A DNA stretch of 64,000 nucleotides from Mytilus californianus (lineage: Eukaryota). The DNA lies in NCBI RefSeq assembly GCF_021869535.1, contig NW_026262593.1, positions 14,694,001 through 14,758,000 on the forward strand. The letters run 5' to 3'. The number at the start of each line of letters is the position of its first letter. The stretch's first letter is position 1. The notes under the pieces are model-generated. The model made no database searches. It had not been told where the DNA came from and saw only the letters and a program-made list of their open reading frames with translations. Of this stretch, positions 860 through 64,000 are shown one piece after another. The translations under genes and the position numbers were made by a program.

Positions 860-2665
860 AAGATTTCTTTACAGATTTGGTATAAACATGTGTATATATA
901 ATATTAATTTTGTTATCAGTAAATTCAAATCAAACTAAATATCATTTTTATATACATATGCACATTCATGGCTCTACAATCTGTCGATAACCGTATCTTG
1001 GCATTGCACAAGGTCATGTTTTTCTCTGACTGTTAATGACGTCTTTACATTAAATCCATTGGATGTTGGATGTGTACTGATTGATATTTTAGTCTTAGAT
1101 GCATGATTTTTGTCGAGCCTGCGACTTTTGTCGCAAAAGTGAGACATAGCGATCCTACATTCTGTCGTCGTCGGCGGCGTCCACAAATATTCACTATGTG
1201 GTTAAAGTTTTTCAAAATTTAATAACTTTCTTAAACTATCCTGGATTTCTACCAAACTTGGACAGAAGCTTCTTTATGATCATAAGATAGTATCCAGAAG
1301 TAAATTTTGTAAAAATAATTCCTGTTTATTCGTATTTTACTCATAAATGCACTTAGTTTTTCTACCAGTTAACAATACATTCTCTCTGTGGTTAAAGTTT
1401 TTCAAATTTTAATTACTTTCTTAAATTATCCTGGATTTGTACCATACTTGGACAAAAGCTTGTTTATGATCATAAGATAGTATTCAAAAGTAATTTTTGT
1501 TAAAAAAAATCCTTTTTACCCGTATTTTACTTATAAATGGACTTAGTTTTTCTGCCAGTTTACATTACATTCACTCTGTGGTTAAAGTTTTTCAAATTTT
1601 AATAACTTTCTTAAACTATCATGGATTTGTACCATACTTGGACAGAAGCTTGTTTATGATCATAAGATATTATTCAAAAGTAAATTTTGTTAAAAAAATC
1701 CTGTTTATCCGTATTTTACTTCTAAATGGATTTAGTTTTTCTTCCAGTTAACGTTACATTCACTCTGTGGTTAAAGTTTTCAAATTTTAATAACTTTCTT
1801 AAACTATCCTGGATTTGTACCGAACTTGGACAGAAGCTTGTTTATGATCAAAAGCTAGTATCTAGAAGGAAATTTTTTGTAAAAAAAAAAATTCCTATTT
1901 TTCCGTATATATCTTATAAATGGACTTAGTTTTTCTTCCAGTTTACATTACATACAGTCTGCAGTTAAAGTTTTTAAAACATTTATCAGATTCATAAACC
2001 ATCCTGGATTCTTACCAAACTTGAACAGAAGCTTCTTACATTCAAAAGATAGTATCTAGAGGAAAATTTTTAATAATTATTTCCCCATTTTTGTTGAATT
2101 TTTTTTATTAGTTGTTATTGGCTTTGAATTAGCTGTCAGTAACTGCGAGTACTCTCAGATCTATTCTTGGTGTCTTTTTGTTGTGGAGATGTATCAGTAC
2201 CTTTGCACGTCCACTCTGTGTTTTTGTTTGATGTATTTCTATTTGTGTTCATCTGATGAGTTAAGCCCTTATCAACTGATTTTTATAGTTTGTTCTTATG
2301 TTGTACTGTTACACCACTGTCCCAGGTTAGGGGGAGGGTTGGCGCTTTCAAACTAGTTTAACACCGCCAAATTTCTGTATATGCCTGTCCCAAGTCAGGA
2401 GCCTGTAATTCAGTGATTATCGCTTGTTGCTGTATAACATATTTGTTTTTCGTTCATTATTTTGTAATGAATTACGTCGTTAGTTTTCTCGTTTGAATTG
2501 TTTTACATTTGTCATTTCTGGGCCTTTTATAGCTGACTATGCGGTATGGGCTTTGCTCATTGTTGAAGGCCGTACGGTGACCTATAGTTGTTAATTTCTG
2601 TGTTATTTGGTCTCTTGTGTAGTGTTGTCTCATTGGCAATCATACTATATCTTCTTTTTTTTATA
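860..2665 (+). repeat. Copy of the most abundant dispersed repeat in the window, split by a nested element at 1107-2100
   Basis: The uninterrupted junction GATGCATGATTTTTTTTATTAGTTG is seen in the copy at 14395-15015. Other copies: 3115-3355(-), 8575-9360(-), 31866-32140(+), 32270-32960(-), 33350-34210(-), 35460-35650(+), 51675-52090(-), 58040-58260(-). Confidence 0.8.
1107..2100 (+). mobile_element. Non-autonomous Helentron-type (HINE/pearl-like) element with central ~190-bp tandem array
   Basis: Inserted in a T-run with no TSD. It has a 5' GTCGAGCCTGCGAC...GTCGTCGTCGGCGGC microsatellite-like head. Array units start at about 1198, 1388, 1578, 1767 and 1961. ORFs 1497-1751 and 1726-1929 are array artefacts. 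Confidence 0.7.
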
Positions 2666-4231
2666 TTTAGTATCAATTAATTTAATTAGAGTTGATGGGT
2701 TTTAGTCATCGATAGAATGCAAGCGCTCTAAAGCTGTTGAAGTACACGTTTCATACAGCCATATAAAAATATACATTCAAGAGACCACTTCTTTAAAAAT
2801 TATCTTCCCTTTTGTTGCATTTTACCTATTAGAAATCAACGAGTCTGCTCCGTTTTGCAAGTCACCCTTTAATACTGACATTAAGCAATCTCTAATAAAT
2901 CACATATTTATACTTTTTGTCACTGGTCTCTAAAAGAGCGACGAAAGATATCAGAGGGACAGTAAAACTCTCTAGTTACCACTTAACACACAACTATATT
3001 CTCTTTTCCTCATCAAATGTTTCACGGCCCTATAAACTTTGCTAAAGTGTATTAATGCAGAGAAGTTGGCAGATATTTTGTTACATGTTATGATTTTCTC
3101 TTCTTTTGATGTTCATATAAAAAAGAAGATGTAGTATGAATGCCAATGAGACAACTCTCCACAAGAGACCAAATGACACAGAAATTAACAGATTTAGGTC
3201 ACCTTACGGCCTTCAACAATGAGCAAAGCCCATACCGCATAGTCAGCTATAAAAGGCCCCGAAATCACAAATGTAAAACAATTCAAACGAGAAAACTAAC
3301 GGCCTAATTAATGTACAAAAAAATCAAAGAAAAACAAATAAGTAACACAGCAACAGTTTGTTTTACATAGGACATGCACTGACTAAATATTTTGTAAATC
3401 ATCATTATTGATTGCTGTAACTTTTTATGGGCCTGATTTTGATTCTAATACTTGCAACTGGACATTTAAAAACTATCAAGAATCAATAATATAGTAGATT
3501 AACATGGGAACGTGCTCAGAACCTGCTTTTAGAAATATATACACACCATACCAGATAATATATTAAATAATAAAGTTTCAAGGATAAAACAAATCTGCTC
3601 ATCTACCAAATTACAAATCGTTTTTTGAAAGAGGAATTTACTTCTTCCCATAGCACCTGGCTTGATACTTACAAAATAAAGTCCGGATAAATTGCTGCCA
3701 GTCGGGAAGAACGGTCACTGTTGATGGAAATTTATTGAAAAAGCAATCCCAGTCAATTTCGTCACCTATGAAAATTAATAGTTACAACTAAATTGTATTC
3801 ATGTAAACGTTTCATTTCATATTGTACTAGATATTGGTATGTTGCTGGCTTTTACGAAGACAACTTTGGAATAGTATGACATGTGATGTATGCAAATTAA
3901 GAAGGAGATCCTCGTTGTACCTAGTATGACTGTATTTGTAGTTCCGAGTGTTTATTCTAATTTGTTATCTGTTAAAACCTGGATGTTATTATGTAAAATG
4001 AAATGGGAATGTTACCTTCATATTTATCTTATTGTATAAACACTCCAATTTTAGATTATAATTGTTAAACTTCAAATGCAATGTAGACCTGATCTTTATG
4101 GGAAAAAAACAAGATTGTAATTCCTGCAACAGAGAAGTTTTGAAATTGATAAAAAGAACGGGGAAATTGCGATGTCCACTTTTTTTGGAAACGTCGGTTT
4201 ATATTTCCGTCAAAACATGGATTTTTAATAA

Positions 4232-5215
4232 AATTGAGAATGGAAATGGGGAATATGTCAAAGAGACAACAACCCGACCAATGTGCAGACAACAGCCGAA
4301 GGCCACCGATGGGTCTTCAACGCAGCGAGAAAATCCCGCACCCGGAGGTGGTCCTCAGCTGGCCCCTAAAAAAATTGTGTACTAGTTCAGTAGAAATGGA
4401 CGTCACTCCAAAACATACAAATGAACTAAGATTAAAAAAAATTACAAGACTAACAAAGGCCAGAGGCTCCTGCCTTGGGACAGGCGCAAAAATGCGGCGG
4501 GGTTAAACATGTTTTGTGAGATCTCAACCCTCCCCCTATACCTCTAGCCAATGTAGAATAAAGATAACATAGCAATACGCACAGTAAAACTCAGTTAAAA
4601 GAAGTCCGAGTCCGATGTCAGAATAGGTAACAAAAGAAACTAAGCAAAATGATAATGATACATAAATGAACAGAGGACTACTAGCAGTTACTGACATGCC
4701 AGCTCCAGACCTCAATTAAACTGATTGACAGATTATGTCTTCATCGTATGAAAATCAAGTACAATCCCTCCCGTAAGGGGTTTAGTATCATACCATCATA
4801 AAATATATGAGAAGAACATAACCCGTATCATGCCAATAACTGGTTTAAGAATAAATGTGTTTATTTCCGATGCAAAGACCCTATGAGTGAATCAATATTA
4901 ATACCAAAATATGCAATCCTTAATGACTTGACAACGGTATCGTAACTATATCCTTTCCGAATAAGTCTGTTTAAAGGTTTGGTTAGCTTTTGAGGTGAAT
5001 GCCGACATTTTTGTGCTTTGTAAGGAATATTACCATAAAATATTGGATGTGAAATACCTGAACGTATAAGATGTATGCATGTTGATTTATATTTACGAAT
5101 GATGTCCTTGTACCGATGATAAAATTTAGTAAATGTTTTGACTAGTTTGTGATGTCGAAAACCCTGGTGTAATAATTTTTCAGTAATACAGAGATTTCTT
5201 CAGTTGAAATCAAAT
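4232..5215 (-). mobile_element. 5'-truncated Penelope-like retroelement (RT C-terminal region plus 3' repeat)
   Basis: Minus frame ~5200-4861 reads LCITEKLLHQGFRHHKLVKTFTKFYHRYKDIIRKYK...SLHRK*. This resembles the region that follows YISQLIRY in mollusc Penelope-like RTs. The abundant 3' repeat follows it. Confidence 0.65.
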
Positions 5216-11700: not shown

Positions 11701-14700
11701 TATCTTTTCTATCCCAGTTCCATTGCGGTTACCGAAAAGAAATAGGGACAATAAGGCATATATTTGGCTTAAAATTGGTGCAAAATTTAAAAGTTACATC
11801 ATGATCTTAATTTAAGAATTAAACAAAAGATTTTAAAAAATAATGACGAAAGTAGTATTTTTGAAAACTTTTTTGGTTTTCCCCTTCCTTACTCATCTTT
11901 TGTAAGTACATTTTGGTTTGAAAAGTATTGGCACATATAAGAAACAACTTCATATTTCATGACATCATGTAACAAGCTTTGACAGCTGCTCTAAAAAAAT
12001 ATCTAAGTTCTTTACACGTCGTTTTCACAAAAGGAAATATCGATGAAATACCAAATTATCAGCCTGTATCGTCAATTCCGTGAAGTAGATGCCGATTAAA
12101 AAAGTAGTATTGCGTTATATAAGTAAACATTTTCATTTTCTTATGTTATGTATTTTTCTTTATTATGTGCAAATGTGAAATAGTAAACAAAATGTTCAAA
12201 ATTTTCATTTTTTCAATTGCCAAAAACATGTCCTCCTACTCTTTTTATCAAAATCACCGAACACAGACTGGTTGGGAATAAGAATAAACGTATCATAAAA
12301 ACAATTTAGTATTCTATTTGTTTTGATTTAAAGTAACATAAAATAAACACACCCTAATTGATGATTTTTTTCTGTTCCTTGTCTTCTCCTCTTAATGAAA
12401 CATATGGTACACAAAGCAACTATGAATCCCACACCACTACCCATTCCAGCTTTTAAATAAGTACTCGGGCCGCTTTCAACAACTACGTGCATCACTTCTG
12501 AAAGACAAAATACAATGAACAATCGTTATTTTTTATGAATCAAAATTGAAAATGTTAAATCATTCTATATGAACAATCTCGCATGTCATATCTAATTTGT
12601 TGTTATATGGAGAATGTGATGTTGATGGAATTTTATATTTTACTGTGTGGTGTTTTCCGCTTCTTTGTTTAAGTAGAAGTTGTGCTTTTCCTTCACATAT
12701 TTATCTATTGTCTTTATTTTTGTCATTAACACATATTTTGAAATTCTCACTTTTGTTTTCGATAATAGATCTTTGTATTATGTGTTTGTGGGCTTTGTAT
12801 TTGTAGTTGGGTTGTTTCATCTTTATATCATGGCATTGTTTTTTGTTCTACTCTACCTTGACACCCGATAAAACCTGATGCTTTCTTAGGACTAGGAAAT
12901 ATTTGGTGTGGTCTTGTGGCATATCTTAGTCTTAGCCAGTTTAACGAAAGTCTCATAAGATAAGATTCTGTCCACAATTTAGGATAGCTAGAATGTTTTA
13001 GGCAATTTCTAAGACACAGATCAAAAGTCAAAATGAAAAAACAAATTAAACGGAATAAAATTCCTTTATATGTTTTTATTCCGACATTTTTTATCTTGAA
13101 TTAATTCCTTTTTTTACTCGTGCTGATGCAATGAGAACCGTTATACAGGTAATGCAAACGAGTGAACCCAAGGTCAAATCTGTTATACGTATTAATAACA
13201 CAACGATTATAACCTCTTATTAAATATCCTACATTTTAATTTTTAATTTTAGATAGATTTTGTTATATATTATCATTAACAGTCATTTCAATATCTTTTA
13301 TCGTATTGTTATTCTTGTAACATTTTATGTTATGTTGAAATAAAGAAAATACGATACTCCTTTTACATGTATACTATGAAATATCATAAATTTATTTCAT
13401 ATACGTCTCTATTTTTATATTCATCCATTAGATAAAATAGATTTAGGATCTTAGATACGACCATCATAAAGATGGTCTTGTTTTGCATCCTAAGAAATGT
13501 ATCAGCAAAGTTCTAAAACCATCCTACATTAAGACGTAACTCGGGACATATCTTTGATTTCATTGACATGGCCCCTGACATATTTTGTCATTTATTTCCG
13601 TTCCAGGTTTGGTGGAAATTAAATTTCTAATGTTTGGCAGTGTGTTTTCAAATTAGAGTTATAGTTCAAGCTCGGACACTGGGGCTACTCTTCATTGCAC
13701 GAAAACGTCCGATACCATGCTTGAAGATATATGAATCTTTTTGTCCCCTTTTTTTGTCGTTGTCGCAAAAGAAGATTGAACCTTGTCTTAGTCAAGATTT
13801 AAAAAAAACTATTTGGATGTCAGATATAATAAACGACATTTAAAGAACTGTAAATAATTTGATCACGAGGGCTACAGCGAAACTTGACATTTCACAAACG
13901 TACATCAAACTACAAACCTTTGTCTGGTATACATGCCATATTATGCGTGGTGTTACAAGGATACCACATTTCAGTATTGTTCGGGCATGATGTCATGCAT
14001 TGGTGACATGGCTCCAACGACTGAGCAGGATTGTAGGAGCTACCGTTGGTGCATGGTTTACACTGTGTATCTGTAAAATTTGATGCTGAAAATAGAAAAT
14101 ATGTTTTACTTACGAAGGAAATACTCAACATTATGTAAACATTTTTCTGTTCCACGATTGTTTTTTAAAGAAGAGGAAAATTTTGTTTTAGATGTTATTG
14201 TTCATATACATTACATCAGTTCAATAATATAGAAAGTTACAATGACGCAAGTCTAAATATCTAAAGATCAAAATCTCATGGCGAAATTCATATGTCATAT
14301 TGATTGAGTTGCTCTTTACTTGCATAGAGTCCAGTCTCAAATATTTAATGCATATTTAAGACAAGAACAAACGAACAATTATTGACATTGCACATTGTTA
14401 ATGACGTCTTTACACTAGATCCATTGGATGTTGGATGTGTACTGATTGATATTTTAGTCTTAGATGCATGATTTTTTTTATTAGTTGTTAATGGCTTTGA
14501 ACTAGCTGTCAGTAACTGCGAGTACTCACAGATCTGTACTTAGTGTCTTTTTTGTTGTGGGGATGTATAAGTACCCGGCCACTTCAACTCTGTGTTTTTG
14601 TTCGATGTATTTCTATCTATATCCATCTGATGAGTTTAACCTTTTTCAACTGATTTTTATATTTTGTTCTTATGCTGTACTGTTACACCACTGTCGCTTT

Positions 14701-15489
14701 CAAACTAGTTTAACCCCGCCACATTCTGTATGTGCCTGTCCCAAGACAGGAGCCTGTAATTCAGTGATTGACGTTTGTTGCTGTGCATCATATTTGTTTT
14801 TCGTTAATTATTTTTTACATGAATTAGGCCATTAGTTTTCTCGTTTGAATTGTTTTACAATTGTCATTTCGGGGCCTTTTATAGCTGACAATGCGGTATG
14901 GATTTTGGTCATTGTTAAAGGCCGTACGGTGACCCATAGTTGTTGATTTCTTGTTAATTTGGTCTCTTGTTAAAAGTTGTCTCATTGGCAATCATACCAC
15001 ATCTTCTTATTTTTTTATTTATACGAGTATGAAGTGGACTTATGTTAAAGGCAAAACATTTATGACTGCAACTTGAAACTGAGACTATTTCTGAAATGGA
15101 CAAAACTCTTGGTTTACGCCAGGCCACCTAGATGAATTCTTGCAATATAGAGAAAGCAAAGCATTCACACTTCGATTTAACATTCCCATGTTTATCGGTC
15201 GAAAATGCGAATTAGTACAGTCATCCCGTTTTGCCAAACAAACTTCTAAATTTGTCAAGACTTATAATGCTAGACAGAAGAAGAATAATAAGAATTTGAA
15301 GTAGAGAACTGGCTAAGCTTTTTCAGAACTTTACTGTTGGATGCATCAATTTATATTTTGTAAAAGGTAGACATTGCTTGAGTGAATAAAAAAATCGAAA
15401 ACAAAATAATCCCATACAGTCTAAGGTTGAAGGGAAAAGGAAAATAGTTTTGTTCACGTCTGCAATTGAATTACGCCCTTGGTTTTTAC

Positions 15490-15534
<45 letters not shown>

Positions 15535-15822
15535 CAAAAGTTAAATAAATACGGTGTACAGAATGTATATATTAAAATTTTAAATTCGCAGACTACATTT
15601 TACATCAAATAATAAAAGTTCGTTAAAATAATGTCAATAGCGCTTTCATGCCTTCTGGCAATCTTCAGGCGACGATTTAACAATGAACGTTACCAACGGT
15701 AGTGTCGTCAAGGACATTGTTAAATCGTCGCCTGAAGATTGCCAGAAGGCATGAAAGCGCTAGTGACATTAATTTAACGATTTGTTATTATTTGATGTGA
15801 AATGTAGTCTGAGAATTTTAAA

Positions 15823-15877
<55 letters not shown>

Positions 15878-18800
15878 TGTTACTTAACAAAATAATGTTT
15901 TTTGTGTTATTGGGATGTAAAAGCCCTTCATACTAAAAATGTGTACAACCGGTCATAAAATTACAAAATAAAACGGAAAACAGTTAAAGCAGAAATTACA
16001 AGCTAAATCAAGTTTGGTATGGTCACATTGTCATGGAGAGACTGCGATCATGACTGCTGCGTTAATTAAAATAAACTGAATACTTCAATTTAGAATATCA
16101 CGTGATTTATGTCTGCCAATGTAAATCATATATTGGAATCACCATACAACATCTACACGTATGTCATGTTATTATAACTCTTAACTATTGTGTGCATATG
16201 TAAATATGTCGGCAATATATGCAGCAAATTAAAAACAAACTTTGGTAAAATAAAAGAAAAGAAATGTTTTTCATACATTTACACCATATTAAAAAAGATA
16301 TTATCATAAGTGAAAAACAATCTTACCATTTGCTACTAACCCATGTCCAGCAGAACAAAGAGAGTTTGCCTGACAAAAGCCTCTTGCTGGTTCTCTTTGG
16401 TCTTTAGTAAAATGATACCCTTGAATACATCCGCAAACAGTGTTAGATGTTGCTGTGCATGGAGACAGGATAGCTGATACCCAATGATTCATGACAACCT
16501 CTTCACACCTTGTGCAACTAGTACAGTAGTTGGCTCTGTTTGAGGTAACCTGATAGGCGCCATCCGGGCATGGAACGCACTGCATTTGGGTATTTGAATT
16601 CTGTAAGTTAACAACAACAGATAAGCTAACAAAACAGATAGTGTACACAATCTTTAAATGAGTTAAAACCAAAATAGAAACAGGTGCTAATGTCAACTTT
16701 TAAACACCTTCCATTTTCAGACCGAAAGAGAAGTAATTAATATAATAAAAGCCAGTTAACCTAGTATTTAATTTACTCATAAAATTTAATACAGCTGACA
16801 ATTGTTGGATTTAGTGAATTTCAATATAAAGATGTATGAAAATGCTTCAAAGATGTTTCAATAAATTTGAATAAGAAAAAACATGACAATGTCATTCATC
16901 CAAAAACATTGACGTTGATGACAATTTTGGTGTAGTATACTAATTTTTTGTAAGTTTTTATTTTTCGTTATTAGATTCTGCATTAATTAAGTATGTACTC
17001 TTCTGAAGAGGAAAATTTCCTGAATTAAACTTTAAAAATGGTTATGACATTTCTATAGACAGATATTTCCTTGTGTGTTTTCAACAACAAAAAACTGTAG
17101 GTAGGTGTTCAATTAAGGAAGCTACGGTCATCTGAAATTTGACCATTTACAGAATATGGAAAAGGTGACAAATCCCAAAAATACCAGCAAAATATGCATT
17201 TTTCTCAAGTAATCAGGTCTACAACTCATTTCCTGTGCTTTATCTCTTTAAATAAACATATCATAGATACCAGGATTGAAAATATGTGCGCCAGACGCGC
17301 GTTTGGCCGAATAAAAAAAAATTAAAAAGGCCAAATAAAGTACGAAGTTGAAGAGCATTGAGGACCCAACATTCCTAAAACTTTTACCAAATACAGCTTC
17401 GGTAATCTATTCCTGAGGTAGAAAAGCCTTAGTATTTCGAAAATTCAAAGTTTTGTTAACAGTTAATATATAATTATGACCATATCAATGATAAGTCATG
17501 TCAACACAGAAGTGCTGACTACTGGGCTGGTGATACCCTCGAAGAGAAAAACTCCACCAGCAGTGGCATCGACCTAGTGGTTGTAAACAAACTCATCATA
17601 GATACCAGGATTGGAATTTTGTACGCCAGACGCGCGTTGCGTCTACAAAAGACTCATTGCCTCATGGACAAAACAAATATAAATAATACACCATATGAAT
17701 GCATATTAATTTTTTTTCTTCATCATATTGGATATGAAAAATTCACAAATTTATCACGAAAACTCCCAAACTCCAGATTTTACACTAAAAATATCACACT
17801 TTCCGAATTAAACTCTTTTGAAGACTTAATATATAGTTGGACCCACATAACATCAACATTTTAAGCCAAACAAAAAATGGAAAATTAATGTTTTGTCTGA
17901 AAAAGAATATATAGTTTGATATATGATAGAACTTGTAGGTTTGGTTTAGCCCTTTCCATCTACTTGTGTTTTAAATTTGCTGATTTGAGCCATTAACAAA
18001 TCGTAGGACGTCATATGTTCATGATCTCTACACTATTTTTCAATTTCGTTTCTTTATGATAAAAAGCGTAAAACTACCAAACGTCTGTATGGAATTAAAT
18101 GGTCGCAAACCCCTAGTCACCTTGCAAAATAACAATCCCTCTGTAAGGGAGATAATCAAAGGTTTCTACAATATCATTAGTGGCCATAACTCGGACATAA
18201 GAAGTTTTATAGATGTAATGTCTTCGACATTACATTGTATTACTTCATATGTGATCTGTATATAGGGTCAAGGCTTATGACTTTCCGCATTATTCCTTTC
18301 TATGTAAACATGTTGGAAATTGGCCGTAAACAGTAAAACGTTAGAGTAAATGGTGAAAAATATTTGCCTGCTTTTTTATTATGTTTTGATGAAAAAGCTG
18401 CCCTGGCACTCTTGGTTATTTGTTACTCAGTCTCTTTCTATTGAACAATGTTGAATAGTTGATAATACTTTCATAAAAATCAAAGCCAAAAACTTTAATT
18501 GCCCTGATTGGTTTTAAATTGCACCATGTTATAGGCCATGCTCTACTGAAAAAAAAATGTATGATTTCAAGGAAATTTTGTCAACAGAAGTCACTTTTGG
18601 AACTTGAAATGAACTTTGTTCCCATTGATATCAAATATCTTCCTTAATCCAACAGTACACGGTTTCAAGATATGTTTTAATGAACAATGGTTTTATTGAC
18701 AAAAATTACCTTCATCTAGCTTTGCTTTTTATCTTCTTGTCTTGGAGTCCAATGATAAAGACACTAGGTTCTTACGACTAAACGTTTACGAATTTTCCCC

Positions 18801-19637
18801 ACTTATACATTTCCGGACCTACGATAGGGACTATTGTCGTTTGAGAAATCCCCCACCCCTCCTTTCAAAACTATGTCAGGCCCCCAAAAAAATTAAAAGG
18901 ACGCTGACTAACTTCTAGACTATAGATATTTTGTTTAATTTTTGCTTGCCACTTTCAGCAGTTTGCCCCTCTCCCTTCCCGCCATTTCAGTGTACTCCTA
19001 CTCCACTGAAAAAATTAAATAAACATATATCAAAGGCATGAGATACTTGAGGCAAGTGCAAATTAGTAAATTGCTGCTTTGCTAACTTGGTTAAAAGTCA
19101 AGTCTTCAGAACCCTTACACGATCGGCCTAAATTACGTAATTTTAATCATCGAAAAATCATTTCAGCTTTCAATTAAAGTTGTGTATACATGATATATAA
19201 TAAAATCTAGAAGTTGAGAAAAAATGACAAGAAAAATTAGACTTGTTTTCTCCAAATATTTTGCCCAAAGAAACTATGGTCACGACTCAACACATTATTA
19301 TAAATTTAAATACCTTGCAATGCAATATCATTATGATCTAGATTAAAACATATCATTTTAACAAAAGAATTTTGGGTCATGTTCAAAAATCATATCATTT
19401 ATATACATACTTCCTGATTTGAACTAATAAAGGTAGATATTATATATTATTAATATTTATCTAAAAGGAAATTGTACTCACCAAACAGTCGCCAACCGAA
19501 TGGAAACCAGGTCCACAGTAAAAACACACTTTCCCGTTTTTCTCATACGAAGGCCATTTATTGTAATTACAGCAAATAGAGTCCAAGAAAGAAATTAACA
19601 CAAAACAATAAAACAAATTCTGTCGGCGATAAATCAT
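5272..19637 (-). CDS. TNF receptor superfamily member: signal peptide, 4 cysteine-rich domains, TM, repeat-containing tail, no death domain (predicted 11 exons, 378 aa)
   Basis: Exons (minus): 19637-19482, 16600-16327, 14085-13918, 12497-12353, 11985-11893, 10553-10521, 10040-10008, 7978-7913, 7325-7293, 5707-5655, 5354-5272. All have AG/GT boundaries, phases are compatible and the total is 1137 nt. CRD patterns: CFYCGPG..DC, CVPCPDG.Y..CTSCTRC..PCTATSNTVC, CQANSLCSAGHG..DTQC, CKPC..PCHQCMTSC..PCNTTHNMAC. Confidence is high for exons 1-4 and moderate for the 3' exons. Confidence 0.8.
6028..7269. mobile_element. MITE-like element with TIRs and a 6-bp TSD
   Basis: TIR TACGGAAGCGTATTAGCGCCACACA at 6028 with its reverse complement ending at 7269. 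Both flanks are GATATT. Subterminal ATAACGCAAAC repeats are present. Confidence 0.8.
7293..10553 (-). CDS. Four homologous symmetric (phase 2-2) microexons of 33, 33, 66 and 33 nt
   Basis: 10553-10521, 10040-10008, 7978-7913 and 7325-7293. Each ends in (G/A)TCAATAG followed by GTAAGT, GTAAGT, GTATTT or GTAAAT. Each is open in the same frame and sits in a homologous intron unit. Confidence 0.65.
8375..9825 (+). mobile_element. Retrozyme-like unit (hammerhead-bearing direct repeats at 8375-8460 and 9739-9825) with a nested ~1-kb insertion
   Basis: Repeat GCGTTC-CTG(A/G)TGA-...-GAAAAGCGCTTC-GGACGC. The body segments match the reverse complement of 17330-17585. Confidence 0.65.
11893..11985 (-). 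CDS. TNFR-like exon 5 (juxtamembrane tail)
   Basis: Tandem acceptors TTTTTAG/AGCAG and a GATGA|GTAAGG donor. Only one frame is open: CQSLLHDVMKYEVVSYMCQYFSNQNVLTKD. Confidence 0.65.
12353..12497 (-). CDS. TNFR-like exon 4 (transmembrane helix + basic stop-transfer)
   Basis: TCTTTCAG acceptor. Encodes GMGSGVGFIVALCTICFI-KRRR. The donor AGG|GTGTGT is the most plausible of three nearby GTs. Confidence 0.8.
13918..14085 (-). CDS. TNFR-like exon 3 (CRD4)
   Basis: Lies within ORF 13910-14155. TTTTCTATTTTCAG acceptor and AAG|GTTTGT donor. Encodes ASNFTDTQCKPC...MACIPDK. Confidence 0.85.
15562..15878. repeat. Foldback (arms ~120 bp, inner 48 bp perfect, 29-nt loop) associated with (TA)n tracts; each arm carries a hammerhead-like motif
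   Basis: TAGCGCTTTCATGCCTTCTGGCAATCTTCAGGCGACGATTTAACAATG ends at 15685 and its exact reverse complement starts at 15715. (TA)n tracts lie at ~15503-15532 and ~15827-15874. Confidence 0.85.
16327..16600 (-). CDS. TNFR-like exon 2 (CRD1 end, CRD2, most of CRD3)
   Basis: Lies within ORF 16304-16696. TTACAG acceptor, GTAAGA donor, TNFR cysteine spacing. Confidence 0.9.
17250..17665 (-). mobile_element. Retrozyme-like monomer with two decayed hammerheads ~336 bp apart
   Basis: Direct repeats ATCATAGATACCAGGATT...CGCCAGACGCGCGTT at ~17260 and ~17596. They match the intact hammerhead copy at 40790-40868. The cores are mutated or deleted. Confidence 0.7.
19482..19637 (-). CDS. TNFR-like exon 1 (signal peptide + start of CRD1)
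   Basis: MIYRRQNLFYCFVLISFLDSICCNYNKWPSYEKNGKVCFYCGPGFHSVGDCL followed by a GTGAGT donor, phase 0. Not in the ORF track. Confidence 0.85.
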
Positions 19638-20877
19638 AATTTTGAAGTATTCTAACTTAAGATATTGGTTTCATTTCATATTAATTTCTTTTGCGAATTT
19701 AAATTGAAAAAAGAAACTGGAAATACCAATCATTTAAAATAAAATCAAAGACAAAACATGAATGACGTACGTAATATTATGATCACAGTAGGCATATTGT
19801 CCGGCTGGGATCGTGTTTTTTCGAGTGATTTGATCGGGTTTTTTTCGAGTGTGACCACGTTTTTTCGAGTAAATACGATCAAAACTGTCAACAACCAGAT
19901 GTCTTTTCTGGTAAAAATGTAAACTTGATGCTTATACTTAATATACAACACCATACAAGGTAAGGTAGTATTTTTTGTTTAAAAGATATTATCAACCCTA
20001 CATTATTTTGTGTTATAAAAGTTTAATTTAGTCTTACCACATTCCAAAATATGGAGTTAACCCGTTTTTATATACATACCAATTCAAGTGTCAGAGAGAA
20101 TGCATACATGGCATGTATTTATCCTTAAATATATAGACACGTTATAAAAACTCTTGTTATTGCATTCATAAGAACATTTTGAAAAAAAATCATTTGTATA
20201 TATCCGGGTTTTTTCGAGAGCAGTTCGATGTTTTCGTGTGCGGTTCAGGTATTATCGAGTGAAAAAAATCGTATGTCTTAAAATGTTATATGCCTGTGCA
20301 TTTACGATTATATGATTTGCATATCTACAAATACTTGAATTGGATTGGTCCGTTAGCATTTTTTTCCTTGGTTTACACTTCGAAAGACCATGTTGCCGAA
20401 ACTATTTTCGTAACCTTCATTGTGATCTATTTGTGCGCGATACAGATGCATGGGATCAAATACATAACTGTTATTTCTATTCTAATGAATAATAAAAAGA
20501 ATTAATGCATTTAAGCTTGGAAAATGTATAAATTTACAATAAAATAAAATTCCGCGAAATTTCTTGAATGAGCTTGGCGCATTAACGTCATGGAAAAGCT
20601 TGACGTCATACGAATGAAAACTCTCAAGATGAAGATTATTCCGTTTTTTGTACGCTTCAAATTTAAATAATATTTCATTAAAATGAAGTTTTTGAGGTAG
20701 GTGTTATTTCATTTTAGATTCTATTGCATTAATCGAACATTTAATAGATTTAAGAAAGTCAATATGGCGGCTTACTCCCTAGTTACGAAATGTCAATTGT
20801 GCATTTGATGGTAAATAGTAGCCAATGTACCAAAAATTGATAATTAAAAATTGCAAATGTTTGGGTCAAGAATTATA

Positions 20878-26008: not shown

Positions 26009-26781
26009 AGTATTATGACATTAATTAATTGGTTTTATTGAATAACTTACCGGTGTTTATCATTTTTCGAGTATGTGTGTGTATTTGTGTGTGTGTGTTT
26101 GTGTGTATCGATTCAAGGTTTTGTCCATATAAATATGAGCAAGGAATTATCCAATATGATCCTCTTTTTGTGTGATTGTATTCCTATTTTTTTTTTAAGT
26201 TTCTGCTTCTCGGTACAACACTAGTAATGATAACAACAATAATTTATACAATATTTAATGTCCCCGTCGATTCAGACAGACATGGGTCGGGGAGCCATCC
26301 ACATGTTGTCTTTACAATATATATAAAGAATAAAATTATCTATAACTATTTTATACATCGAGATAAAGAAATAGAGAGTCGCATATCACTCAACAGTATC
26401 TCTAACCTCACGAAAGGGCCAACAGTATGCTATCTTTCGTGCAGGGGTGTAAACTGTCGAGACTTGAAGTTAGTCTTTCCGGGATAGTTAACTCTCTCAA
26501 ATATCAGATAAATCGCGAGCTTTAATCCAAGAGTTGAATTTCTTTAGCTATTGTAACCATTTCACATAATATTGCGTGTTGGGTCCTTTGCCTTTCGAAT
26601 TCGTTTTGAGGATGTTTTCAACTTTCCACACATCGTCTTCCCGAACATCTACTTTCTGCACTTCTGATTGGTAGAAGGTTCCTGAAATTTCGTCGTCTTG
26701 AAAGTCAATAAGTCGATAAACTGGAAGCCCACCACGTAATATTCTTTGAGATATTCTAAATATCTCTCCGCTCCATTTCTC
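26009..26781 (-). repeat. Left inverted arm of the Polinton, including an inverted copy of the integrase 3' end (26497-26781)
   Basis: Reverse complement of 30000-30780 with roughly 20 substitutions and ~6 indels by eye. Minus frame EKWSGEIFRIS...VWKVENILK...YVKWLQ*LKKFNSWIKARDLSDI*. ORFs 26176-26487 and 30442-30630 are the same non-coding arm read twice. Confidence 0.9.
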
Positions 26782-26919
26782 TGAATATCAATCAGATCGT
26801 TATTCATATCAGTATCAAGACTGGGAACCCATACGGTCGGTAGACTGAGGAGTCATTTTCCCGACCCGTGGACGAGTACCAGTGGCGATAGACTCCTTTG
26901 ATATGAATAATAACTGGTT

Positions 26920-27526
26920 GTCTTTATCTTAACAGACCCATCTACGTGGGATTAACTATACTCGATTTGTCAAAGACACTTATGTACGATTTTCAATTTA
27001 CATTGTAATTATTTGAAGGATAAATATGGGCCTAGAGTAACACCCTTGTTCACGGACACAGACTCACAATGCTACAACATCAACACTGATGATATATATC
27101 AAGATATGATGGAGGACAAAAACTTGTTTGATACGTCAGAATATGACCCTGAACATCAGCTTTATAGCACATTCAATAAAACGGGTTAGGAAAGATGAAG
27201 GACGAAACACATGGTATTCCCATACAGGAATTCGTTGGTCTGAAGTCAAAGATGTACTCGTTAATATATGAGGAGAATAAAACACTCTGCGAAAAGAAGA
27301 CAGCCAAGGGTATAAAGAAGAGTGTGATCAAACAAGACACGAACATTATAAACAATGTTTACTCAATAAAGAGATCCACAGGTCTACCATGACACAGATC
27401 CGTTCATACGATCACAAGTTGTATAATATATCCATCAACAAACTGGGCTTATCCCCTTATGATGACAAAAGATACTTACTAGATGATGGGATACAAATTT
27501 TGGCCTATGGACATTGGAGAATATAA
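26920..27526 (+). pseudogene. Protein-primed family B DNA polymerase, C-terminal fragment, frameshifted
   Basis: LYLNRPIYVGLTILDLSKTLMYDF, LFTDTDS, GKMKDE, EFVGLKSKMYS, KTAKGIKK, LSPYDDKRYLLDDG, LAYGHWRI*. At least three frame breaks. Confidence 0.9.
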
Positions 27527-27601
27527 TAAGGATGTATGTAAATATTTTAATCACTCTATGTTTAACATTTGAAGGAAGAGGACGTGTTTAAAGAGCTCTC
27601 T

Positions 27602-29116
27602 ATGATGAATACAACATGTTCAGAATGTGGTATAGAATTTTCGAGAAAAGATGCTATGTTGATACATTATAGGAAAAAACACAAAATCAATCAACCATAT
27701 CCACCGAGCAGTCATGCGTATCCACCACCACCACCGCCACCACCACCACCACCACCACCGCCGCCACATGTGGTACTACATCATCCATTCACTATGATGT
27801 TGGCTGGACCTACTGGTTCAGGTAAGACGTTTTGGATGAAAACATTATTGGAGCGAGCACGGACTATGATAAAACCTTCACCTGATAGGATTATATGGTG
27901 TTATAAACGGTGGCAGCCATTATTTAGTGAAATAAAGCAGACCATTAAAAACATTTTGTTTATTCAAGGTTTACCTGAAAATTTGAATGATGACTCATTC
28001 ATTGACTCTAGATATCCAAGTTTAATCATCCTAGACGATTTAATGAGAGACACCACCAATAGCAAGGATGTTTGTGAATTCTTTGTGGAGGGCAGCCATC
28101 ACAGGAACCTAAATGTAGCTTGTAATATGCAAAATGCGTTCCCGAGGGGAAAGGAGAGTCAAACCATGAGCATCAATAGCCAGTATATAGTCCTATTCAA
28201 AAACCCACGTGATCAAGTTGGGCCATCCATATTTGCTAGACAGATGTATCCTAATTACCCAAAGAAATTCATGAATAAGTACAAAGAGGGGACACAACGA
28301 CCATATGGGAGTCTATTCATTGATTTAAAACAGAATACACCGGAAGACGACAGACTAAAACTTAATATATTCGAAAACAAGAACATGATTGGTGGAGGTG
28401 TTTCAGAAGAGTATATTAGCAGAAAAGAACTAGAACCACCTCAGTTTGAAGAAACATTTCAAAGTGAGCAGACGTATTTACCAGACGAGAGAGAAATCAT
28501 GCCTTCATGTGATGATTGCGGTGTAGTCTTTGAAAGCGTTCCTGATTTAGCTAGACACATGAATAAGTGGTGTCCGGAAAATAATGATTTAAAAAGAAAA
28601 AGGGGAAACGAGGATGACGACATTCCCTTAAAGAAGTCTCGTGTAGACGAAATTTATATAGAAGATGGAGAAGATATGGCTTTTATAAAATTAGCTGAAC
28701 TTGCCAGAGAGGCAAATGAAGATATTTGGGAAGAAAAAGTTGATAAATACATGGATGGTGATATGAATGAAGACCACGCAATAAGTAAGGCCGATCACAA
28801 ACTAAAAGATGAGGATATGGATCAGTTTTTGTCGAGATATAGCAGTTTGGGTGAGTATGTACTACAGTTACAAAATGGTAAATTGCATGGCAAAATCATG
28901 AAAATGATTACAGAATTAGTTAACGATGGCAAGGACTACGATAAAGCCATTAAAGTAGCCATCAGGAAATATAAACCTTTGTTGGAAAGCTATCTAGATG
29001 AAGCTATTGATAACGAAACAATCGATGATGGTTCTGAAAGTGAAGATAGCATTGATGATGATGAAGAGGAAGAGGAGGATGAGGAGGATGTAGACGATGA
29101 AAGCTCAACTATATAA
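27602..29116 (+). CDS. C2H2 zinc finger + poly-Pro + A32/FtsK-like packaging ATPase + second Zn finger + acidic tail (open ORF, 504 aa from ATG)
   Basis: Walker A GPTGSGKT, Walker B LIILDD, GSHHRN, VLFKNPRD. Zn fingers CSECGIEFSRKDAMLIHYRKKH and CDDCGVVFESVPDLARHMNKWC. The first ATG is at 27602 (the track starts at an upstream TTG). Confidence 0.85.
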   Translation: MMNTTCSECGIEFSRKDAMLIHYRKKHKINQPYPPSSHAYPPPPPPPPPPPPPPPHVVLHHPFTMMLAGPTGSGKTFWMKTLLERARTMIKPSPDRIIWCYKRWQPLFSEIKQTIKNILFIQGLPENLNDDSFIDSRYPSLIILDDLMRDTTNSKDVCEFFVEGSHHRNLNVACNMQNAFPRGKESQTMSINSQYIVLFKNPRDQVGPSIFARQMYPNYPKKFMNKYKEGTQRPYGSLFIDLKQNTPEDDRLKLNIFENKNMIGGGVSEEYISRKELEPPQFEETFQSEQTYLPDEREIMPSCDDCGVVFESVPDLARHMNKWCPENNDLKRKRGNEDDDIPLKKSRVDEIYIEDGEDMAFIKLAELAREANEDIWEEKVDKYMDGDMNEDHAISKADHKLKDEDMDQFLSRYSSLGEYVLQLQNGKLHGKIMKMITELVNDGKDYDKAIKVAIRKYKPLLESYLDEAIDNETIDDGSESEDSIDDDEEEEEDEEDVDDESSTI

Positions 29117-29172
29117 ATATGAGAACGTTTTACTCTGTATGTCATTCTATAATCATCATTCCATATGTAAAG

Positions 29173-30306
29173 ATGGCCTTTTGGGAAAAGTACTTGAGAA
29201 ATATTTATTACAATCCAGCTAACCCAGCGAGTTTTGCAGTCCTGATAAACTTTACAGATTTGTTCGAACAGATGGAAAGTTCGTTCTCAGTAAATATAGA
29301 ATACGAAAATGGCTACAACGACAGGAACCATACAGTTTACAAAGACCCTTAAAAAGGTCGTTTAAGCGGAACAGAGTTATCGTTATTGGGATAGACGACC
29401 AATGGGATGTTGATTTAATGGACATGTCTAAATTTTCTAAATTTAACAGTGGATTTAATTTCATATTGGTGGTGATTGACATATTCTCCAAATATGTATG
29501 GCTAAGACCTCTAAAGAATAATAAAGGTGAATCCGTGGCAAATGCTTTGAAACATGTTTTATCACAAGGAAGATCACCAAACAGAATAAGAACAGACAAA
29601 GGACAAGAATTCAGATAAAGATTAGTAGAATCTCTCCTAAAACAGAGAAATATTCAACATTTTCTTGCACAAAATACGGAAATCAAAGCTAATTACGTTG
29701 AAAGAGTTATCAAGACTATCAAATAAAAAATCTTGAGATTTATCACCAGTAAGCAGTCATATGACTATGTGGATAACTTACAGAATTTTGCTAACAGCTA
29801 CAACAAGACCTTCCATAGAACGATTGGCATGGCACCAGATAAAGTCACCCTATCTAAAGAGACAAACCTGTGATGGAAAATGTATTGGCCAAAAAGATTA
29901 CAACCTAAGACAGAGAAAGTACGAAAACCTTTCCGTTTCAAAATCGGTGATAAAGTTCGGATAACATACATAAAAAATCCTCTTACCAGGAAATACGATG
30001 AGAAATGGAGCGGAGAGATATTTAGAATATCTCAAAGAATATTACGTGGTGGGCTTCCAGTTTATCGACTTATTGACTTTCAAGACGAAGAAATTTCAGG
30101 AACCTTTTACCAATCAGAAGTGCAGATAGTTATCAAAGGTACCAGGATTATAAGTAAGTGGATGTTCGCGAAGACGATGTGTGGAAAGTTGAAAACATCC
30201 TCAAAACGAAAGGCAAAGGACCCAACATGCAATATTATGTGAATGGTTACACTGGCCAAAGAAATTCTACTCTTGGATTAAAGCTCGCGATTTATCTGAT
30301 ATTTGA
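29173..30306 (+). pseudogene. Polinton retroviral-like (rve) integrase with C-terminal chromodomain, disabled
   Basis: IYYNPANPASF, DQWDVDLMDM, VIDIFSKY, RTDKGQEF, YVER and the chromodomain VKWLHWPKKFYSWI. Frameshift ~29239, stops at 29616, 29724 and 29871, a 29-nt insertion at 30125-30153 and a 1-nt deletion ~30242. Confidence 0.9.
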
Positions 30307-38200: not shown

Positions 38201-40370
38201 TACATAATAACTTAGTTAGGAGGAAGAATGACTGAAATCGACACTACATAAATATTTTGTTCGGTCACCATCACGAATGGCGGGTGAAGCACGCACAGCA
38301 GGATACACTCACCCTGTCGATGCACCCGGTACCGTTTCTTTTATAGTTCCTAAGTCTTTGTTTGTTACATTGATTTGTCTTCTCAAATCGATGCATGAGA
38401 TTTGAACATCAGTAAACTACTGGTCTCTTCTTATATATCATTACTTTATCATGGTTTCTTTGTATTTTAATGGTATATACAAGGGTCTGGATAGGGGGTC
38501 CTTCAATTCTTAACTCTTTAATTGTTTATAGCTCTATTGCTCTATTCTTCATAAATTTTGTCCATTATCATCTATTCTTTATATTTTAGCGCTCAATTAT
38601 TCCCTATTCCTTATATTATTGGCCTTTTTTCTCTATTCTTTATTTTTTAGCCATTTATTTTGCACTTTTCCCCATTATTCTCTATTCTGGAAACCCTATC
38701 TAGACCCTCATATACATCATGTCTTTTCCTATATATAAATACTTAATCATGGTTTCTTTGTATATTAAAGGTATATACATTATTTCTCTTCATTTTACAG
38801 CTAGCTCAAAGGTAATGTCGAGCTATCATGGTTTAGGAGAGGACACGCTCAATGTTGACACGTACTATATTCCATTTGATGCAGGACATTTGACCATGTC
38901 ATTGACTACGAAAGGATGCGCACCAGTATCCGAAGGTTTCCAAACAAACGATGGCATCTTCAATATTGGTTTCATGGGACTAACTAGTGGCATAACAGAC
39001 CAATCTGTGTTCGAATTGCCTTCCCCTTGTAAGGAGGAGTCGATGAAAAAGAGAGTATGTATTAACATCAGCATCCTTCAAAGGATCGAATTTTATTTAA
39101 TCAATCCCTCCTAAAGTTCAACATATGCCAGATCATTACACTGTCCCATTTCTCAATAATATATAACACAACATTTAAATTAAGTGGAAAATATAGATAT
39201 CGTTTAGAGAGCCATTTTGTACAGAATTATAAGAGACTGTAACATTGAAACATTATAGAAAATTTGTTTATTATAAAACAAATATATAAGTACATTATTT
39301 ACAGTATAAAACACTTCTACGTCTTTTTGAAATTAGATAACAAAATGTCATGCTTTGACACAGCTACCAATCATATTTACTAAACATTCTTGACATAGTA
39401 ATATTAACAACTGAAGTACTAACAATATATTCTGTAATGTTAAACAAATATTCTACGTTGCACGCAGAAAATGTTTTCCTTACATGATAATTTCATATTT
39501 ATTTTATACTTGTGTTTTCTACTCATTTTATCTGCCCATATGAAAACCTTTCTGTTTAACCGATTATAACTCATATTAAAACGGAACCAAAGTCGAATTA
39601 AACATTGTCATTGTTTTTTAAAATAAATATCCACCCAATACCCCCAGCAACTGCAGTATTTGGAGTATATTAACCGACACTGGAAAAAATCTGCTAGCTC
39701 TATAATTATGTATAGCATTAATAAAAGAAAGATTTTATAACCCCAATACCAGTACCATATTCAGCATGTGGGAACACCAAACTTTCAGATAGTTTTGAAA
39801 AGACTGTATGAGGAACATAATAATAACATGAAAAAACCCACAGATACAAATGTAATACGATAAACCTAACAAGTAAATATTTGGAGATAGCTGATTTCTG
39901 TTAGATTTATACAATATAATGGAACAAGAAGAACCAATTACACATGCGCAACATGGAAAGCAGGATATTTTTACCCTTCCGGAGCACCTTGTGTTGGTCA
40001 GGTCTTGTCTTGTAGTGTTTTGTGGTCTGTTTATCTTTTGGTCGTTGTTCGTGTTTGGCTTTGACGTTGTCAGTTCATTTTCGACTTGTTTGATTATCCG
40101 CCTTTCTTGTAATCTTGTGCTGTCCTTATGTAACATATAATGTGTTTCTTTAGACTTACGCACCCAAAGCGATTGGCAGCCATTGCAAATAAAAGCTGAA
40201 TGCTGATACTATAAGTTTTTCTTCTTTTTGAAAGTTATATCAAATGCATACTATTTAAAATCCAAAGGCATATGTATGTGTGTTGTATATACGTTGATAA
40301 TGATTCACCAGAACTGTCAGTTTATTTTCTTTTTCAGGAAATACGACAGTCGCCATTCGTTCCCATCTGA
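35290..40370 (+). CDS. EPDR: Ependymin-related protein, copy A (5 exons, 209 aa, secreted)
   Basis: Exons 35290-35427, 36775-36888, 37359-37449, 38801-39054 and 40338-40370, all AG/GT, 630 nt in total. Signal peptide, CCLPQQLEG, GCAPVSE, FELPSPC. AATAAA at 40408. Confidence 0.9.
37900..38400 (+). mobile_element. Decayed Penelope-like RT fragment in EPDR-A intron 3
   Basis: IYPSELEIKDT..SASYLDL..NFPFLSNI then ISQLIRY in another frame. A shorter 3' remnant lies at ~49340-49530 in copy B. Confidence 0.7.
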
Positions 40371-40719: not shown

Positions 40720-40868
40720 AGGAATTTTTCGTCCTCAATGATCCTAAACTTCGTACTTCATTTGGCATTTTTAACATTTTTTTATTCGAGCGTCACTGAT
40801 GAGTCTTTTGTAGACGAAACGCGCGTCTGGTGCAAATACAAAATTTTAATCCTGGTATCTATGATAAG
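40720..40868 (+). mobile_element. Retrozyme end fragment containing the hammerhead at 40790-40833
   Basis: Matches the reverse complement of both terminal repeats of the 17250-17665 unit. Confidence 0.7.
40790..40833 (+). ncRNA. Type I hammerhead ribozyme, intact core
   Basis: Stem I GCGTCA/TGGTGC, core CTGATGA, stem II GTCT-TTTGT-AGAC, GAAA, palindromic stem III CGCGCG. Predicted GUC cleavage after 40827. Confidence 0.8.
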
Positions 40869-53359: not shown

Positions 53360-53471
53360 TAGTGATCGAAACGGTATTTTATATATACTAAAGCAACAGT
53401 TGTTTAACAACGCTATTTAAATCTCTAAATTGATTAAAAAGACAAACCAATGTATAATTAATAAAAAAAAA

Positions 53472-53930
53472 TGAAAGAATCCAAAACGAGCGAGATCGGA
53501 AACGTCGGGAGTGTAAAATAGGAAAGAATCCAAAACGAGCGAGATCGGGAACGTCGGAAGTGTACAAAAGGAAAGAAACCAAAACGAGCGAGATCGGGAA
53601 CGTCGGAAGTGTAAAAAAGGAAAGAATCCAAAAACGAGCGAGATCGGAAAAGTCGGAAGTGTAAAAATGAAAGAAACCAAAACGAGCGAGATCGGGAACG
53701 TCGGAAGTGTAAAAAAGGAAAGAATCCAAAACGAACGAGGTCGGGAACGTCGGAAGTGTAAATAAGGAAAGAATCCAAAAACGAGTGTGATCGGGAACGT
53801 CGGAAGTGTAAAAAAGGAAAGAATCCAAAACGAGCGAGATCGGGAACGTCGGAAGTGTAAAAAAGGAAAGAATCCAAAAACGAGCGAGATCGGGAACGTC
53901 GGAAGTGTAAAAAAAGGAAAGAAAAAGAAG
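53472..53930. repeat. 49-bp minisatellite, 9 copies
   Basis: Unit GGAAAGAATCCAAAACGAGCGAGATCGGGAACGTCGGAAGTGTAAAAAA. The three overlapping minus-strand ORFs are artefacts of it. Confidence 0.95.
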
Positions 53931-63617: not shown

Positions 63618-64000
63618 GTAAGTATGATGACCACGAAGGTGATTTTTAACTACCTTGACTAGTCTACCCATGAGGCCAGGTCTTGCCTTGGTCGGTAAAT
63701 TTAAGAATCATTGAAATGATAGGCATACACAAAAAATAAACAAGTCGTAAACATGGGTTATTATATATCAACGATATAAGTAAGATACAATACATCACCA
63801 AATAATGAAATAATGTGTTTTAAAAAATCACATCTTAAATCATCTGGTCTCAGTTAAGAAACTGTTAAATGACAAGTAAGGGAACCTAGCTTGTAACAGA
63901 CCATCAGAATACAATTGGAAATGTTCTGATTATACAGGTATAATTCTGCGAGTATTCAATTTGCTTGGCAATACATAATCCCCTCCCGGTTAAACATTCA

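Follow-up and report, generated by a model that had tools for sequence, protein, structure and literature searches.

The closest described counterparts of the locus considered here are Penelope-like elements (PLEs) of the Hydra clade. In the accessible text of Craig et al. (2021, PMC8557442), 26 of the 27 families of this clade prefer (TA)n, and an inverted 5′-truncated copy with a 30-40-bp tail at one end is given as usual for PLEs. For Penelope-13_HM, the same text lists hammerheads on each of the two strands and a 5′-truncated copy in inverted orientation. For Penelope of Adineta vaga, the available portion of Arkhipova et al. (2013, PMC3846280) reports an inverted pLTR that is 37 bp shorter than the direct one (about 30-40 bp), a 31-bp tail on one arm, microhomology at the 5′ junction and palindromes at junctions, with head-to-head as the commonest arrangement. 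In Schistosoma, dual minimal hammerheads lie on opposite strands, 100-700 bp apart; minimal hammerheads with a palindromic helix III are described in the available text of the same report as dimers of same-strand tandem copies that cleave weakly in vitro (Cervera and de la Pena 2014, PMC4209133). Inverted repeats of Penelope are also tied to siRNAs in transgenic Drosophila, according to the accessible part of PMC3681739.

We analyzed a 64,000-nt stretch of DNA (the window) in which a TNFR intron carries a foldback of ~300 bp with a hammerhead motif on each strand. This foldback is very probably a single decaying, non-coding insertion of an EN+ PLE, doubly 5′-truncated and arranged head to head, that lies in (TA)n of the intron and is most like the Hydra clade. 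Placement in the Hydra clade itself is suggested by the sequence and should be considered a lead only; helix III differs from that of most Hydra rows. An inverted Penelope pLTR remnant had been one of two readings offered by the initial annotation, and all structural tests that could be run for a PLE support it. The foldback has a type I hammerhead in the pLTR near the 3′ end, an inverted 5′-truncated copy placed head to head, a one-sided 32-bp tail, a dispersed family with variable 5′ truncation and a palindrome at the inverted junction. It also has the Hydra-clade trait of insertion into (TA)n, which occurs in some Naiad and Neptune families as well and is therefore not exclusive. The features of the locus, named according to this reading, are as follows.

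14086-16326, minus strand: host intron between two TNFR cysteine-rich exons, placed by GT-AG ends and Pfam.
15503-15533: left (TA)n tract of 15.5 units, the microsatellite that served as target, with a short (CA)n before it.
15534-15565, minus strand: 32-bp tail beyond the pLTR end, on the left arm only, placed by comparison of the arms and by the tail end in other copies.
15566-15685, minus strand: inverted copy of the element 3′ end, 120 bp, the more strongly 5′-truncated of the two.
15633-15673, minus strand: minimal type I hammerhead motif, in the sense of the TNFR pre-mRNA.
15682-15685: head-to-head junction with 3-4 nt of microhomology, within the loop of a parental hairpin with a 7-bp stem.
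15686-15714, plus strand: 29-bp “spacer”, which is ordinary parent sequence upstream of the direct arm and no dedicated loop.
15715-15834, plus strand: direct copy of the element 3′ end, without the tail.
15727-15767, plus strand: minimal type I hammerhead motif.
15828-15874: right (TA)n tract of 23.5 units, its first bases overlapping the AT-repeat end of the pLTR.

The inverted arms are 120 bp each (15566-15685 and 15715-15834) and align with a constant coordinate sum and 8 mismatches. A perfect inverted repeat of exactly 48 bp (15638-15685 and 15715-15762) covers both hammerhead cores, just as had been annotated. The “many” mismatches ascribed to the outer arms come to only 8 in 72 bp, which are all that the arms contain. 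An extent of 15562..15878 had been proposed for the unit; it describes a foldback correctly and misplaces the start, which lies at 15534 with the 32-bp extension of the left arm. A GC content of 32%, the repeat types, the ependymin exons and a hammerhead-type repeat of roughly 350 bp suggest a mussel or related bivalve as the host. The setting was likewise borne out, with (TA)n tracts at 15503-15533 and 15828-15874 inside an intron of 2,241 bp (16326-14086, minus strand) that has GT-AG ends and flanking exons in frame. Pfam TNFR_c6 matches both exons, with E values of 5.7e-7 (above the cut-off) and 3e-4 (below the cut-off). The TNFR-like gene may have another exon upstream, in a cysteine-rich frame at 19464-19670 (minus strand) that has no Pfam match. 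Both flanks of the foldback are (TA)n, and a target-site duplication is unreadable inside such a microsatellite. No ORF is left in this copy. Head-to-tail repeats, which were looked for, are absent at the locus; this sets the foldback apart from a non-LTR retrozyme with tandem hammerhead repeats, although the family may have tandem copies elsewhere. Within the window, blastn found no second copy of the arm, and the upstream motif of the family was not found elsewhere.

A foldback form between TA tracts would also fit a DNA transposon of the MITE type that targets TA, has long terminal inverted repeats and carries a hammerhead-like motif by coincidence. The outer ends are asymmetric by 32 bp, however, and symmetric terminal inverted repeats are absent. 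The family, as described below, is seen mostly as single arms that continue upstream, and the ribozyme signature is of the PLE type. We regard a MITE origin as extremely improbable.

We considered selection as the source of the perfect 48-bp core and do not adopt it. Given 8 mismatches, the probability of any run of at least 48 is 0.13, or 0.30 if the cluster at 15616-15619 is counted as one event, and such values are unremarkable. For a 48-bp window fixed in advance, the probability of zero mismatches is 0.014-0.043, and the probability of at most one mismatch in the 41-nt ribozyme is 0.17-0.33.

The plus-strand hammerhead stands as originally parsed. It spans 15727-15767, with the core CUGAAGA at 15732 and a CUA triplet that ends at 15762, and it comprises a stem I of 5 bp that can be lengthened beyond an internal loop, a stem II of 4 bp with U on either side, and a helix III that is a six-base palindrome. 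Its core is 102 bp from the pLTR end and ~60 bp from the other core. The mirror copy on the minus strand (15673-15633) was confirmed together with its one stem I mismatch, which is due to position 15637 and breaks the first stem I pair, next to the cleavage site. The family has the pairing base at 15637 (summed depth 3359/3381 in genomic run X1 and 1209/1255 in genomic run X8), and the change is therefore private to this copy.

A strict hammerhead descriptor found three sites in the window versus none in all 60 of 60 first-order Markov controls. The hammerhead motif is thus beyond chance. The minus hammerhead of the foldback fails this descriptor due to its stem I mismatch. Searches with Rfam gave no matches at the gathering score across the window, and hammerhead models were absent on 15400-16000 even at E values up to 10. 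The 16 sub-threshold Rfam matches on 15400-16000 were set aside; most are miRNA-precursor models that react to the hairpin or the TA tracts. When isolated, the plus ribozyme region is not unusually stable relative to shuffled sequences (z −1.58, with 15 of 200 as good).

Two other type I hammerhead motifs are present in the window. The one at 40791-40833 (plus strand) is minimal and belongs to a different family, its stem II closed by the canonical G-C pair and its helix III palindromic; it has no inverted partner in the window. The motif at 53358-53316 (minus strand) represents yet another family and is single within the window. Two decayed 3′-half copies of the 40796 hammerhead family also lie at 17251-17660 (minus strand), ~350 bp apart and head to tail, with damaged cores. 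Their spacing fits the 350-390-bp repeats of mussel retrozymes given in the accessible text of PMC7229834.

To survey the family, four of 24 candidate runs were aligned to 15534-15827: the contigs of genomic runs X1 and X8, and two RNA runs. The search for candidate runs had a best share of 0.24-0.31 of 29 words, with no RNA run among the carriers listed, and is not taken as evidence. In total, 137 contigs (X1) and 99 contigs (X8) aligned to the arm, of which 93 and 70, respectively, were less than 95% alike, and the arm family is therefore a dispersed, diverged repeat. Summed depth, which should not be equated with copy number, peaks at 6876 (X1) and 2294 (X8), where single contigs have ~10-60. 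Loose ends of the family contigs vary, as would result from variable 5′ truncation. Other copies likewise have (TA)n beside the tailed end (5 contigs each in X1 and X8) and beside the tail-less end at 15566 (4 contigs, X1). At this locus, two 3′ ends of one multi-copy family face outward to (TA)n, and their 5′ truncation points differ. Pattern scans aimed at family members gave no matches in the viral, metagenome and prokaryote genome contig collections. A relaxed viral scan returned 13 matches, and these were discarded, as hammerhead stems were found in 0 of 13.

The junction can be read from the same contigs. Twelve contigs of X1 and 11 of X8 match from 15682/15683 on and have in common an upstream continuation (agreement 0.61-1.0), which identifies the 29-bp “loop” as ordinary upstream sequence of the parent. 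At the junction, 3-4 letters are common to both arms. Ahead of 15682/15683, the last letters of the loose-end consensus are the reverse complement of 15687-15693, and the two form a 7-bp hairpin with the junction in its loop; note that this palindrome is short and is based on a 30-letter loose-end consensus. Relative to the family majority, the left arm alone is changed at four of the mismatches (15581, 15601, 15616 and 15637), the right arm alone at three (15772, 15781 and 15782), and one is unplaced. Decay has thus affected both arms, and one of the left-arm changes, at 15637, is what breaks the minus ribozyme.

These data bear on whether the second arm could have arisen after insertion. If a single PLE end had inserted, a local inverted duplication (by a template switch in replication or by hairpin repair) might have made the other arm. 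Template switching, too, typically leaves microhomology and a small palindrome, both of which are found at the junction; palindromes can moreover homogenize near their center, which would fit the perfect 48-bp core. Each arm, however, has parent sequence that is missing from the other (the left has the tail, the right has 15686-15714), which indicates that both derive from a longer template and that neither was copied from the other. Each outer end corresponds to a recurrent class of family ends adjoining (TA)n, and no flanking host DNA is duplicated. Later duplication would need to be followed by a precise deletion, and we consider it very unlikely.

Insertion of two truncated element ends would proceed in a few steps. 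The GIY-YIG endonuclease encoded by the element would nick both strands of (TA)n. Synthesis of cDNA would then be primed from each side on the 3′ end of the element RNA, in one case at the pLTR boundary, which is a short AT repeat, and in the other 32 nt further. If synthesis halted after ~150 nt, the two cDNAs could be joined head to head via microhomology. Fold-back at the junction palindrome, as the available text of PMC3846280 proposes, would be an equally good route. By either route the foldback hammerhead would be the pLTR ribozyme of the parent, present on both strands only because the element end was inverted. An RT or endonuclease ORF linked to the pLTR of the foldback was not found in the viral, metagenome and prokaryote collections or in the 30-letter loose ends. 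Proteins of the Hydra clade are marked by a DKT motif, a CxCX5C linker and an endonuclease that lacks CCHH.

The other reading offered by the initial annotation was a small ambisense element with viroid-like ribozymes. A related possibility is that a foldback unit derived from PLE ends is mobilized whole, with a fixed junction and spacing, possibly via a rod-shaped RNA that carries a ribozyme in each polarity. Such a unit would be in keeping with hammerhead motifs on the two strands, with the −164.6 kcal/mol rod fold of the whole unit, and with a 48-bp core free of mismatches compared with 8 in the outer 72 bp. Recurrence with fixed spacing, which had been proposed as a test, is not what the contigs of X1 and X8 indicate. 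Other copies continue upstream as single arms, and joints lie elsewhere. Five joints appear in the contig tables, and two of these are head-to-head inversions at other positions (one contig each, 82% likeness). The joint from 15614 to 15716 (X8, side 51) leaves the inverted arm without a ribozyme, and that from 15672 to 15706 (X1, side 27) is weak, its side being under 30 letters. The remaining three, labeled as joining opposite strands, were dropped because their mirror coordinates indicate single-arm contigs that switch reference arm or have an internal deletion.

Summed depth is also low around the junction: in or next to the junction bin it is 308 in X1 (the lowest interior bin) and 274 in X8 (the second lowest), as against 2450-3580 (X1) and 1464-2294 (X8) over 15694-15723. 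No joint returning from the end of the unit to its start is among those listed. A contig spanning the whole of the aligned segment or its junction is not listed either, which should be considered weak evidence due to the tendency of short-read assemblers to break at inverted repeats and to a filter that drops records. Assemblers under-report hairpin junctions, and recurrence could be missed for this reason.

Folding calculations bear on the same possibility. In each arm alone, the hammerhead fold lies 1.0 (plus) and 2.4 (minus) kcal/mol above the minimum free energy of the arm. Within the whole unit the cost becomes 71 and 74 kcal/mol, and all pair probabilities for stems I and II are 0.0. With the 5′ ends pointing inward, transcription of either strand reaches the antisense arm before the ribozyme, which would thus gain no co-transcriptional head start. 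Neither hammerhead is predicted to be able to form within the rod. The minus copy, in addition, lacks the stem I pair next to its cleavage site.

For a viroid-like RNA, then, hammerheads forming in both polarities are contradicted by the computed folding and by the broken minus stem I, and a fixed arrangement across copies is contradicted by single arms and shifted joints, to which the assembly caveat applies. With arms that continue upstream, joints that vary and hammerheads blocked in the rod, the ambisense reading is not supported, and whole-unit mobilization with a fixed junction is highly unlikely. That the head-to-head unit or a subfamily of it is itself mobilized and transcribed as a rod RNA with hammerheads in both polarities is a distant prospect. 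The same estimate covers, jointly, a milder form in which introns retain such inversions because the ribozyme is locked by the antisense arm and the pre-mRNA of the host is spared.

Returning to the foldback as a doubly truncated PLE insertion, its effect would likely be a silent ribozyme and an intronic dsRNA hairpin. Competition between the hairpin and ribozyme folding, and the potential of the intron to yield dsRNA, had both been anticipated, and the folding calculation agrees with each as a prediction. In TNFR pre-mRNA the arms should pair, giving a 120-bp duplex that blocks the ribozyme and that could be edited or diced. RNA runs X23 and X24 (~6 in 100 of each) contained 4 reads among 10.3 million records and 1 read among 15.6 million, respectively. 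These reads were all less than 95% alike and had no pile-up of starts or ends. Note that the libraries are cDNA and oligo-dT libraries, which are unsuited to small circles or small RNAs.

Several other repeats and genes occur in the window. A 112-aa frame at 4864-5199 (minus strand), which we take to resemble the C-terminal end of a retroelement RT, is followed by a long 3′ region; this fragment has no significant Pfam match and no usable ESM Atlas match. A broken Polinton/Maverick-like remnant at 26551-30239 contains a 516-aa frame with zf-C2H2 and a weak match to Pox_A32 ATPase, an rve integrase fragment, and short frames that resemble pieces of a polymerase and have no Pfam match. An inverted pair at 2425-2664 and 3115-3355 (241 bp, 91% identity, 450 bp apart) probably represents two copies of a common repeat, given a similar stretch near 14830-15020. 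Tandem arrays are found at 1189-2055 (190 bp), 43947-45347 (491 bp), 47809-48549 (161 bp) and 53466-53923 (49 bp). The first three presumably recall internal repeats of Helentron-type non-autonomous elements. Two ependymin-family exons, 38704-39111 and 63261-63659 (plus strand), lie ~24.5 kb apart and suggest paralogues.

As it stands, the foldback is a compact example of a published form of PLE insertion and matters little. It does point to a Hydra-like PLE family that targets (TA)n and is apparently unlisted: its particular family has no description in the literature compared, with Repbase and Dfam outside the comparison, and family motifs were not found in the accessible portion of the PMC8557442 supplement. 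The foldback also keeps a tail, junction microhomology and a palindrome within 300 bp, and these bear on the unsolved mechanism of PLE integration. Viroid-like RNAs are usually screened for by a rod fold combined with ribozymes on both strands, and PLE inversions produce this combination trivially. A mobilized rod-RNA unit, if true, would be a PLE-born route to viroid-like ambisense architecture in an animal genome.

Viroid-like circular RNAs and the carnation retroviroid-like element, as presented in the available text of PMC8865084, resemble the foldback in having ribozyme motifs on both strands and a rod-like predicted fold. That text describes them as circular replicons; those that have a DNA form have it as a tandem. 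The foldback, unlike these RNAs, is one sequence inverted in chromosomal DNA with near-perfect pairing, and no circle or tandem was seen at the locus. Animal non-LTR retrozymes, including those of mussel, are like the foldback short, non-coding and PLE-related, with a type I hammerhead. They form head-to-tail tandems that release circles, however, whereas the foldback is head to head with one ribozyme per strand (PMC7229834 and bioRxiv 10.64898/2026.07.22.740005, in the parts accessible).

Minimal hammerheads of metazoan PLEs agree with the foldback motif in the extra nucleotide after the core and in the palindromic helix III, and in a shrimp PLE row, taken from the figure text, helix III and the triplet are the same as in the foldback. 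The foldback hammerhead differs in lacking the usual G10.1-C11.1 closing pair and in the ~60-bp separation of its cores. The palindromic-helix-III hammerheads of Cervera and de la Pena act as same-strand dimers, whereas this locus has one copy per strand (accessible text of PMC4209133 for these comparisons).

Hydra-clade hammerheads in the available portions of PMC8557442 and its Files S1 and S2 come closer. The clade includes, for example, Penelope-5_HM and Penelope-13_HM. In 8 of 25 families the core and stem II, with its four base pairs, are those of the foldback except for the loop and the variable core position, and the unusual U/U stem II flank occurs in 14 of 25. The hammerhead lies near the 3′ end, as in the foldback. 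Most rows have a helix III of 3-4 bp, compared with the short palindrome of the foldback, and the mollusc member in the clade list is octopus, with no bivalve family in the list as available.

Inverted pLTRs of Adineta vaga differ in that the copies keep an ORF and often have an 8-10-bp target duplication, whereas the foldback arms are ~150 bp and the target is a microsatellite. In arrangement the two are alike, according to the accessible text of PMC3846280, sharing a shorter inverted arm, a tail on one arm, a palindrome, microhomology and head-to-head orientation.
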